Counted from the whole stretch's first letter, positions 43,563 to 45,718 are shown. The stretch: DNA of 62,920 bases, filler included, from Collodictyon triciliatum (GCA_043381765.1; 17 parts of 17 records of this genome joined end to end with filler, not necessarily neighbours in it), one strand, 5' to 3'. Numbers and translations: made by a program. Notes: generated by a model from the letters alone, not told the origin.

Positions 43563-44638
43563 TCAACTGGCCGACCCAAAAGACATAAGCGACCAGCCTT
43601 TCTGTACACTCAAGTTCCTGGCAGAGCCTGTCCCTAATGCAACCGTTTTGGGGGAGATGTCCCTGAGCTCAGCTTCAAATGGTCGAGAATGGATTTGGGT
43701 TTTGTGGGTTTCTCCCCCAGTATGTGCGGATAAGAGTTTGGGGGCTGAGAGGACACGCTGCGAAGAGAAGAGGCAGTTTGCCGCTAAAGACTCTTGCGTC
43801 AAACTCGTTTATGGTCATGCCCTGGGAAGGCAGCTCGCCAGACAACAAGGACCAGAGGGCCACTTCAAATAAGTAGACGTCGCTGAGTGGCCGCAATACT
43901 TTTGCCAATCTTCAAGGACCTTGGTCAGGGCCCAGTTCTTTGACTTTCTAAAGCAGCTCGCTGAGTCGACAGAGATGCCACTTTCCGCAAGGCCGGAGTC
44001 AGCCAGCTTGGCGATGCCATTCGTAGAGAGGACGTTCCCGGTCTTGAGGTTGCGATGTTAGGTGTGCTCTGAGACGTATATGTGTATAGACAAGCGGGTG
44101 CGCTGTAATGATGCGTGGCCTGTGTTTGAAGCCCAGTTCCGTCCTTTGTGCTTCAGCGCTTTCTGATGAGGAAGCAGGGTTCCCTTGATGTTGGCAAACT
44201 CCATTGTGATGGACAGGTAGTTGCGTCAGAACTCAAAGTCATGGAGCGTGAGTGTGCTTGGGTGACGCGGCTCGAGAATCATACTGCTCCCATCCCTCGA
44301 GTCTGCGCCGCCTACGTCCGTAAAAAACGCGTCTCATATCTTCTCCACGGCAAAGAGACCCTCTCTCAGCTACACCAAGAGGACAAGTCCGAAGCCACCA
44401 CCTTTTCCCAGAAGTTCTCTCAGTACCCAAAAGTCGGTGATCAGGGTGGCCTGCTTCCTGTCATGGGCCAGTTGGCCGGCGCTGTGTTGCTCTGTCGTGA
44501 GGTGTGGTTTTATACGAAGGTCGTGGAGTGCTGTATGAAGGGTATGCAGATTTACTTACTCGCTGCTGCAGTTATTATACGGGCTTCTTCAGCCTTTCGA
44601 GTGTCTCTAGCTCAGTGGAGCTCATCTGCAGTGTCAAC
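43563..44638 (-). pseudogene. Decayed spacer exon and kinase of the third LRR-kinase paralog
   Basis: Recognisable but frameshifted and stop-ridden homology to 6254-7200 (GKGGGF, HRNLKTGNVL, AKLADSG, SDVY). The exon-3 acceptor is AT instead of AG, and there is an in-frame TGA at 44612-44614. Confidence 0.85.
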
Positions 44639-44695
44639 ATATTGGGATGTGTCAGTCGTGTTATATGTCGTCTGAATGACGTGGGCCGTGGATGG

Positions 44696-45718
44696 CTATA
44701 TGCTTACGGGCTCGTATAGCTGCAGTTTTTGAAGGGCAGCACCGTTTGTGATTTGTCCTGTCCAACCAATCCCATCGCTCCAGCATGGAAGCTTCGAAAG
44801 GCTCCGCGGGGCTCTCTCGATACTCACTCCTCCGTGGATGTCGGTTATCACGAGCGTCTGCAGATTTGTGAGCACCGAGATTTCCGGGGGAAGTTCTGTC
44901 ATCTGCAAGCATCGTTTTCAGCCACTTTCCTTTTTAATTTGAAAGAAAAAAAAAGGAGTAAAGTGCAAAACTAACATCACATGAATATTTACCGGATTGA
45001 CATGAACTTGAATGCCAGCCAGGCGAGTTAAGCAGGATATCTCTGATGGAAGGGACAACAACTGGTTGTAGCCAGCACCAAGCTCGGTGAGGCCAGTCAA
45101 ACACGATATTTGTGGAGGTAGCGACGACAGATGGTTTTTATAAACAACAAGACACGCGAGGCGAGTCAAGCAGGATATCCCTGGAGGCAATGATGACAGC
45201 TGGTTGTAGCCAGCACCAAGCTCGGTGAGGCCAGTCAAACACGATATTTGTGGAGGTAGCGACGGCAGCTGGTTGTCATTGACACAGAGACGTGTAAGAC
45301 CCGTCAAACATGATATTTCCGGAGGCAATGATGACAGCTGATTGTGGCCGATGTTAATATTTGTAAGGCCGGTCAAACATGACAGTTGTGGAGGCAGCGA
45401 TGACAGCAGATTACGATTAACATCAAGAACATTGAGGCCAATCAAACACGATATTTCTGGAGGCAGCGTGGACAGCTGATTGTTCTGAATCCATAGTTCT
45501 GTGAGGCCAGTCAAACATGATATTTCCGAGGGCAGTGACGATAGCTTGTTGTTTAAAAACTTTAGTTGCCTCAGGCCACCTAATAAGGAAACACCACGGG
45601 GTAGAGTTGCCAGCCATTTTTTTTCCACTTGGAGACTCGTGGAGCCTTGCAAAGAGGCGATATCAGCGAGCCGGACGATTTTTCGGAGCTCTTCCAAAAG
45701 CGCAGTCTCGTTGGACAT
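44696..45718 (-). CDS. LRR-only protein (about 310 aa); exons 45718-44993 and 44902-44696
   Basis: Ten intact LRR strands, the conserved first intron, and the cap exon (RAPRSLSKLPCW) reading into a stop after YEPVSI. Confidence 0.75.

Follow-up and report, generated by a model that had tools for sequence, protein, structure and literature searches.

The subject of this report is a gene copy on the minus strand of positions 43,563-45,718 in a 62,920-nucleotide (nt) window of DNA from Collodictyon triciliatum (GCA_043381765.1), the window being the whole stretch that was analysed. Judged by its sequence, this copy (hereafter the remnant) is homologous to a family of proteins built from leucine-rich repeats (LRRs), a cap, a linker, a kinase and a tail, yet it is not a working kinase member. 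Its LRR half is not decaying neutrally while its kinase half decays, and the asymmetry is not a product of chance. A first-pass annotation made from sequence alone had described pristine LRR exons on a long-dead kinase and had attributed the contrast either to a selected LRR-only sensor or decoy or to a silent cassette kept fresh by gene conversion and serving as an LRR donor, a role for which nothing here speaks. Lesion counts and relative rates uphold the underlying point that the LRR half is not in neutral decay; they do not tell the two causes apart. Tentatively, the remnant is best viewed as a mosaic pseudogene in which DNA exchange with expressed paralogs closely related to it has renewed the LRR half, and we lean slightly to this account over a selected LRR-only gene.

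The intact half consists of exons 1 and 2 and the intron between them (Table 1). Where about 930 nt of lesion-free exons had been claimed, the two exons comprise 921 nt without a stop or frameshift, and intron 1, bounded by GT..AG, is lesion-free too. The N-terminal LRR array is present as nine regular units recognized by Pfam LRR_4 and LRR_8, and the cap follows the last LRR on an exon of its own, exon 2, which a five-sequence alignment places between phase-0 introns. A Pfam search of the remnant returned no family for exon 2. Every core position of the LRRs is conserved, as is P-R-x-L-x-x-LPCW, the motif of the cap. Read-through of the intron-2 donor (GTAAGC at 44707) gives ..YEPVSI followed by TAG at 44698-44696, the clean stop that had been predicted, and the open frame terminates in this way at a domain boundary, just after the cap sequence ..LQLYEP. 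A hidden defect in the intron-1 donor, GTAAAT, was considered and rejected, the four RNA-verified donors of the neighbouring gene being equally loose (GTAACC, GTATAC, GTCTGC and GTAAGA).

Paralogs A and B, on other contigs, resemble the remnant in architecture and in the position of all three introns. Residues identical to those of A make up 55% of exon 1 (107/195), 48% of exon 2 and 45% of the kinase; the remnant departs from A in its short linker of 26 codons, its broken kinase, its two additional LRRs and the loss of the tail. In the decayed half, the intron-2 acceptor dinucleotide (44640-44639) is AT where A has AG, and the start of exon 3 was set at 44638 by homology, A's exon 3 matching the remnant at 44629-44534 (43.8% over 32 amino acids, E=0.005 within the contig by tblastn). 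A CAG at 44628-44626 was rejected as the true intron-2 acceptor by this homology; as a cryptic acceptor, if used, it would add 16 further codons and then TAA TAA. The lost acceptor and gained stop first reported for exon 3 are thus real, and both the AT and the TGA at 44614-44612 recur in an RNA contig described below. Intron 3 of the remnant leaves exon 3 and the kinase exon in frame.

The kinase exon was aligned, with frameshifts allowed for, to three references: paralog A, the Logan protein P0268 and the Diphylleia protein P0266. Three stops (TAG at 44372-44370, TGA at 44336-44334 and TGA at 44228-44226) and a frameshift near 43882-43904 are common to all three alignments, which otherwise disagree, with 2-7 frameshifts in total or an in-frame TAA at 44060-44058 (3-4 stops in all); many frameshifts and stops had indeed been noted in the kinase. 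The catalytic motifs read AVEK (K to E), HRNLK (HRD to HRN) and DSG (DFG to DSG), with invariant K, D and F all replaced, and Pfam PK_Tyr_Ser-Thr falls on one kinase fragment at E=2.3e-4, under the curated cutoff. The C-terminal tail (about 55 amino acids) is gone, given that homology stops at 43582 and the poly(A) site of the neighbour follows after 15 nt. Downstream of exon 2, then, at least 8 and up to 12 lesions lie in 1,126 nt, in addition to the loss of the tail. Since introns 1, 2 and 3 all stand at family positions, the remnant is not a processed (retrotransposed) pseudogene. Repeat-induced point mutation is disfavoured as the origin of the stops: the frameshifts do not fit it, and the guanine-plus-cytosine fraction of 44001-46000 (0.466) resembles that of A's contig. 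Opposite the dead kinase, an antisense frame at 44130-44675 (+) runs for 181 codons without a stop and overlaps an RNA contig; a Pfam search of its 181 residues found no family, and it is probably a chance product.

The contrast between the halves is anchored in RNA. Contigs of two RNA runs, X1 and X2, were mapped on the window, such contigs proving presence and not absence. The runs represent the same organism or a very close strain, because the lyase-like gene beside the remnant is spliced in both and X1 carries its poly(A) after 43566. An 882-nt X1 contig on 44209-45091 differs from the genome by one mismatch and one single-base gap (44535 A>G and deletion of 44533), either strain polymorphism or contig error; both fall in intron 3, and for that reason the idea that the deletion restores the reading frame was rejected. 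This contig independently reproduces five lesions, namely the acceptor loss and four stops, and because it bridges dead and intact parts the genome contig is not chimeric near 44650, a danger to which the first-pass annotation had pointed. Both runs contain a 168-nt contig covering 45062-45229, identical in the two. RNA confirmation extends over 44209-45229, so that frameshifts below 44209 and exon 1 above 45229 rest on the genome contig; coverage has gaps at 43609-44208 and, in X2, at 44117-45005, with no contig at >=99% above 45229 and no joint across intron 1.

Both lesions and substitutions are distributed unevenly. At 6-10 lesions per 875-1140 nt, 6-8 would be expected in 921 nt, and the Poisson probability of finding none is 2e-4 to 2e-3. 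In RNA-confirmed sequence only, 5 lesions in 499 nt compare with 0 in 432 coding nt, where 4.3 would be expected (P(0) ~0.013). A measure independent of lesion count is the amino-acid rate asymmetry, obtained from a Tajima-type count, for each outgroup, of changes unique to the remnant and changes unique to A. For the kinase, the counts (remnant : A) are 38:12 with paralog B as outgroup, 43:16 with P0400, 53:17 with P0266, 50:14 with P0268, 43:13 with P0351 and 45:12 with P0375 (p<=6e-4 for each of the six), the remnant having undergone about three times A's amino-acid changes; given that the kinase read-through was fitted to A, this test is conservative. For LRR plus cap, they are 18:15 with B, 19:22 with P0400 and 14:13 with P0266 (p>=0.73 for all three), a pace equal to that of A, and the non-repeat parts of the LRR half alone, where alignment is unambiguous, give 7:8. 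The contrast of kinase with LRR plus cap yields Fisher p=0.056, 0.012 and 0.029 with the three outgroups. Synonymous divergence (dS) between remnant and A is 1.22 in the LRR half and 1.07 in the kinase half, and such like values indicate one shared gene lineage relative to A. Third-position identity to A is 0.50 in the LRR part and 0.53 in the kinase (composition expectation 0.25-0.29), and omega to A is 0.29 in the LRR part (256 codons) and 0.39 in the kinase. The relative-rate result fits selection and refreshment equally.

Table 1. Coordinates of the remnant, its paralogs and other features, counted from the first letter of the window
Feature	Coordinates	Strand	Details
Exon 1 of remnant	44993..45718	-	ATG at 45718; ~45-residue N-terminal region and nine 23-residue LRRs; 242 open codons; Pfam LRR_4 E=3.2e-18, LRR_8 E=1.1e-17
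Intron 1	44903..44992	-	90 nt, GTAAAT..CAG, phase 0; same position in paralogs A and B
Exon 2	44708..44902	-	last LRR and family cap ..APRSLSKLPCW..LQLYEP; 65 open codons; aligned with A, B and two Diphylleia rotans proteins
Intron 2 remnant	44639..44707	-	donor GTAAGC and branch-like ACTGAC kept; 44/69 columns identical to A intron 2
Exon 3 remnant	44560..44638	-	short charged linker; in-frame TGA
Intron 3	44492..44559	-	68 nt, GT..AG, phase 1; homologous to A's 78-nt intron 3 (6176-6253)
Kinase exon remnant	43582..44491	-	131/286 residues identical to A; no open kinase
65-nt exact direct repeat	45264-45200 and 45126-45062 (span 45062..45264)	-	two copies 138 nt apart in the LRR array; TRF periods 69 and 138
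Paralog A	4864..7323	+	other contig; intact: LRR, cap, (EETRKE)n linker, kinase, tail
Paralog B	20250..22830	-	other contig; same build, open frames
Sphingosine-1-phosphate-lyase-like gene, 3' part	42300..43566	+	neighbour; spliced, poly(A) at 43566; open spliced frame to TAA; PDB S1P lyase E=4.2e-9
Spacers	3857, 7767, 11677, 15585, 19492, 23399, 27305, 29364, 32283, 36186, 42029, 45929, 49828, 53727, 57625, 61536		

If exchange is the cause, duplication of an LRR-cap-linker-kinase-tail gene would have given rise to a copy with two halves of different effective age. Linker, kinase and tail would be a long-dead pseudogene, and exchange within or between 69/138-nt repeat arrays, by gene conversion or by unequal crossing-over, would keep the LRR-plus-cap half like expressed paralogs, overwriting its lesions and halting where homology ends, at the hypervariable linker. 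The locus itself would be transcribed but unprocessed and would not be a working LRR-only gene. The support for this account is circumstantial and comprises the absence of lesions in exons 1-2, the rate asymmetry, the 65-nt exact repeat, the expressed near-identical relatives and the unspliced RNA of low depth. Adjacent LRR units are only 49-77% alike, and an exact repeat of 65 nt in spite of this indicates recent DNA exchange inside the array; the array of paralog A has a weaker version of the same pattern, with a 28-nt exact repeat. Potential exchange partners exist in the form of close, expressed paralogs, as contigs 90-99% alike to exon 1 demonstrate (18/21 placed in X1 and 11/13 in X2). 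In two such contigs the match extends to 2-3 nt from the ATG and gives way there to different but visibly related leaders. Variability of the linker is likewise evident: the linker exon of A (5785-6175, +) comprises about 17 tandem six-residue EETRKE units and its counterpart in the remnant 26 codons, so linker length is highly variable in the family. Finally, the 882-nt X1 contig, the only one at >=99% over exon 2 and the linker region, retains introns 1, 2 and 3 and has a depth of 6.6 vs 110.8 for the spliced neighbour, whose cleanly joined introns make DNA carry-over an unlikely source of unspliced RNA.

Several points weigh against exchange as the cause. The conversion proposed in the first-pass annotation has gained circumstantial backing from the 65-nt internal repeat and from the 90-99% alike paralog contigs, with no donor tract demonstrated; we infer that the lesions were removed by exchange with a paralog and not by selection. 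Intragenic exchange alone cannot remove lesions. Third-position identity to A is no higher in the LRR part than in the kinase and hence offers no indication that A itself took part in exchange. The intact part stops just where the open frame stops. Selection acting on a truncated protein predicts precisely this edge, and exchange predicts it only if tracts tend to stop at the variable linker. Exon 2 with its cap motif is also intact, a weak point by itself given its 195 nt.

A selected LRR-only gene, somewhat doubtful on present evidence, is the principal competitor. A truncating lesion, e.g. loss of the intron-2 acceptor, would have produced a kinase-less LRR-plus-cap protein of ~310-325 residues that might act as a scaffold, decoy or dominant-negative regulator; decay of the former kinase as an untranslated trailer would, with similar reservation, follow from the same scheme. 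One event plus selection suffices here. The preserved LRR core and cap motif, evolution of LRR plus cap at the pace of intact A, the omega of 0.29 to A and a locus still transcribed are all as expected, and the open frame stops precisely at the domain boundary, beyond which low-complexity linkers follow in A and in the Diphylleia proteins. The RNA, however, lends no positive support to the sensor or decoy that had been suggested: the sole locus-specific contig retains all three introns, and translation into its intron 1 would break off after 28 intronic codons. This contig, which may derive from either strand, extends beyond the would-be stop for at least 490 nt, and no spliced mRNA and no mRNA ending after exon 2 were seen among the X1/X2 contigs, which show presence and not absence. 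Further, with a 3' untranslated region of only 30 nt in the neighbour, a trailer exceeding 1 kb would be out of the ordinary here. An N-terminal MG, which may mark N-myristoylation, is found in A and P0400, and in the remnant serine replaces glycine 2; B and P0266 are without MG as well.

An assembly artefact is unlikely. The 5' LRR part of an intact paralog might have been joined to a pseudogene body via near-identical repeats, or some frameshifts might be sequencing errors. The contig is small, unplaced and microsatellite-ended, paralogs 90-99% alike exist, and the exact repeat of 65 nt offers an obvious place for a mis-join; moreover, the genome has one indel per 882 nt relative to X1, and frameshifts below 44209 are supported by the genome contig only. 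Nevertheless, the 882-nt X1 contig and the 168-nt contig together span the junction of dead and intact parts, and the contrast persists in RNA-confirmed sequence, where five lesions adjoin 432 nt of LRR coding sequence that has none.

Less plausible still is a silent LRR cassette in which ongoing exchange would keep the array error-free while diversifying the LRR surfaces of expressed sister kinases, as a protist counterpart of donor-cassette systems. In the silent LRR cassettes of lamprey VLR and the pseudo-V donors of chicken Ig, a working gene receives copies of non-functional gene pieces whose coding modules are intact; many cassettes flank an incomplete germline gene, and a dedicated deaminase-driven process is at work. 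Unlike those arrays, the remnant stands alone as one locus that has a start codon and introns of its own, and there is no evidence of copying out. That the whole gene died at once and its LRR half has merely escaped lesions so far is hardly credible, since exon 2 by itself could easily escape but the Poisson probability for all 921 nt and the independent amino-acid rate asymmetry both contradict it.

These considerations bear on how pseudogenes are regarded. In fast-evolving LRR families, pseudogene status need not be all-or-nothing: one half of the remnant carries about one disabling lesion per 100 nt and the other behaves as a living gene, a clean and quantifiable half-and-half contrast within a little-known family. 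If selection is responsible, the remnant would exemplify the change of a receptor-like kinase (RLK) into a binding protein without a kinase, in a deep-branching and little-studied protist lineage. If exchange is responsible, concerted evolution would extend to a gene that is already dead, with consequences for annotation and for the dating of pseudogenes. Either outcome would be of a known kind, since broken LRR-kinase copies are common in rice, where, according to an annotation study, 53/350 LRR-RLK loci (15.1%) and 306/1058 LRR-receptor loci are non-canonical, with stops, frameshifts or odd splice sites (PMC9292849). Its authors allow that some truncated products may still work (PMC9292849). 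Plant LRR-RLK proteins are, however, transmembrane receptors of the RLK/Pelle group, and the family of the remnant is protist and, by its build, predicted to be cytosolic. ROCO or LRRK-type proteins share the 23-residue LRR type, and bacterial LRR-Roc-COR proteins are the best matches of the LRR exon (28-54% identity). Pfam gives only LRR and kinase families in A and B and no Roc or COR domain, and the remnant is consequently not a ROCO member.

The family seems undescribed in Pfam beyond its LRR and kinase parts, with neither the cap exon nor the tail assigned to a Pfam family. Paralog A has a 60-codon second exon, a 130-residue linker, a kinase (Pkinase E=1.1e-48) that is open over 360 codons and complete in its catalytic motifs, and a tail of 75 residues; conserved C-terminal tails of the family measure ~60-75 residues. 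A SAM domain was rejected for the tail, with a sub-threshold match only (SAM_Ste50p, E=0.032). The kinase of paralog B is without a glycine loop (..HDDKLGTTYKV..) and has FLDLRPEN for HRDLK and DLC for DFG, and its open frames suggest that B may be an intact pseudokinase. A long AAT/ATT tract (poly-N or poly-I) at ~21330-21600 lies between its cap and kinase exons. An in-frame TAA at 6238 in A raised the question of a variant genetic code, which was rejected: the TAA falls within an intron (78 nt, GT..AG), and once this is spliced out a single open frame results; both A and B have kinase frames that are stop-free for 359-360 codons; and in the mRNA of the neighbour the frame closes with TAA, 30 nt ahead of the poly(A).

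In an exhaustive comparison with 1.84 billion protein representatives, the kinase and tail of A produced 793,596 hits (E<=0.001), with no close relative among them: identity to A's kinase is 37-39% in the top single-stretch matches and 37-38% in those that cover the tail too. Four of the five best matches looked up are Diphylleia rotans transcripts and the fifth comes from a Logan assembly. The Diphylleia proteins P0400 (742 amino acids) and P0266 (655; EukProt) have N-terminal LRRs, the cap ..PRG.t.LPCW..L.LYD., the kinase and the tail, as in the family described here. They are distant (27% identity to the remnant's kinase), and P0400 differs from the members in this window by an SH3 domain in its linker (E=7e-5). 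As another organism's transcripts, the Diphylleia sequences are silent on truncated copies. Word-indexed protein searches found no closer relative, which implies that the organism's own proteins are absent from those collections; with longer proteins, A's kinase reached at most 36% identity in such a search. The LRR exon gave 1280 hits among 7998 scored candidates when compared with longer proteins (28-54% identity among the matches listed, many bacterial LRR or ROCO-like) and, with proteins of near length, 7 hits (E<=1e-30) that reach at most 47% identity. A metagenome scan with exon 2 produced 257 pattern matches and one confirmed locus, L001, which was judged irrelevant from its listing of open reading frames (a short generic LRR beside unrelated frames), and an Atlas search returned generic kinase clusters only. 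With its LRRs, LPCW cap, kinase and conserved tail and its nearest relatives in Diphylleia rotans, the family may merit description.

The window is an artificial chain of contigs, mostly of ~3.8 kb, linked by 16 spacers of the form N44-TTAATTAATTAA-N44. Adjacency across a spacer is therefore meaningless and any spacer-spanning feature artificial. The remnant lies wholly within a single unplaced piece, 42085-45884 (3.8 kb). Mapping of RNA to this piece revealed the lyase-like neighbour, with four GT..AG joints in X1/X2 contigs, arranged tail to tail with the remnant and leaving no space for the remnant's lost tail. Its 3' untranslated region, from TAA to poly(A) site (43534-43566, +), is the 30 nt mentioned above, and the gene abuts the 3' end of the remnant; the genome appears compact. 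In X3, a freshwater metagenome run, a 151-nt contig equals an exon-intron stretch of the lyase-like gene with zero differences, which hints at a freshwater organism. Contig ends are often microsatellites or homopolymers, e.g. (CTGT)n/(TTTG)n at 45763-45884, and a 604-N gap at 31228-31831 lies inside one piece, the spacers elsewhere having 44-N runs. Other contigs carry a core histone at 37807-38247 (-) (Pfam Histone E=1.5e-19, H2B-like by eye), a Sel1-repeat protein of 539 amino acids at 27416-29035 (+) (E=7.6e-44) and a tRNA at 41059-41129 (-), which at 63 bits is the sole Rfam match.

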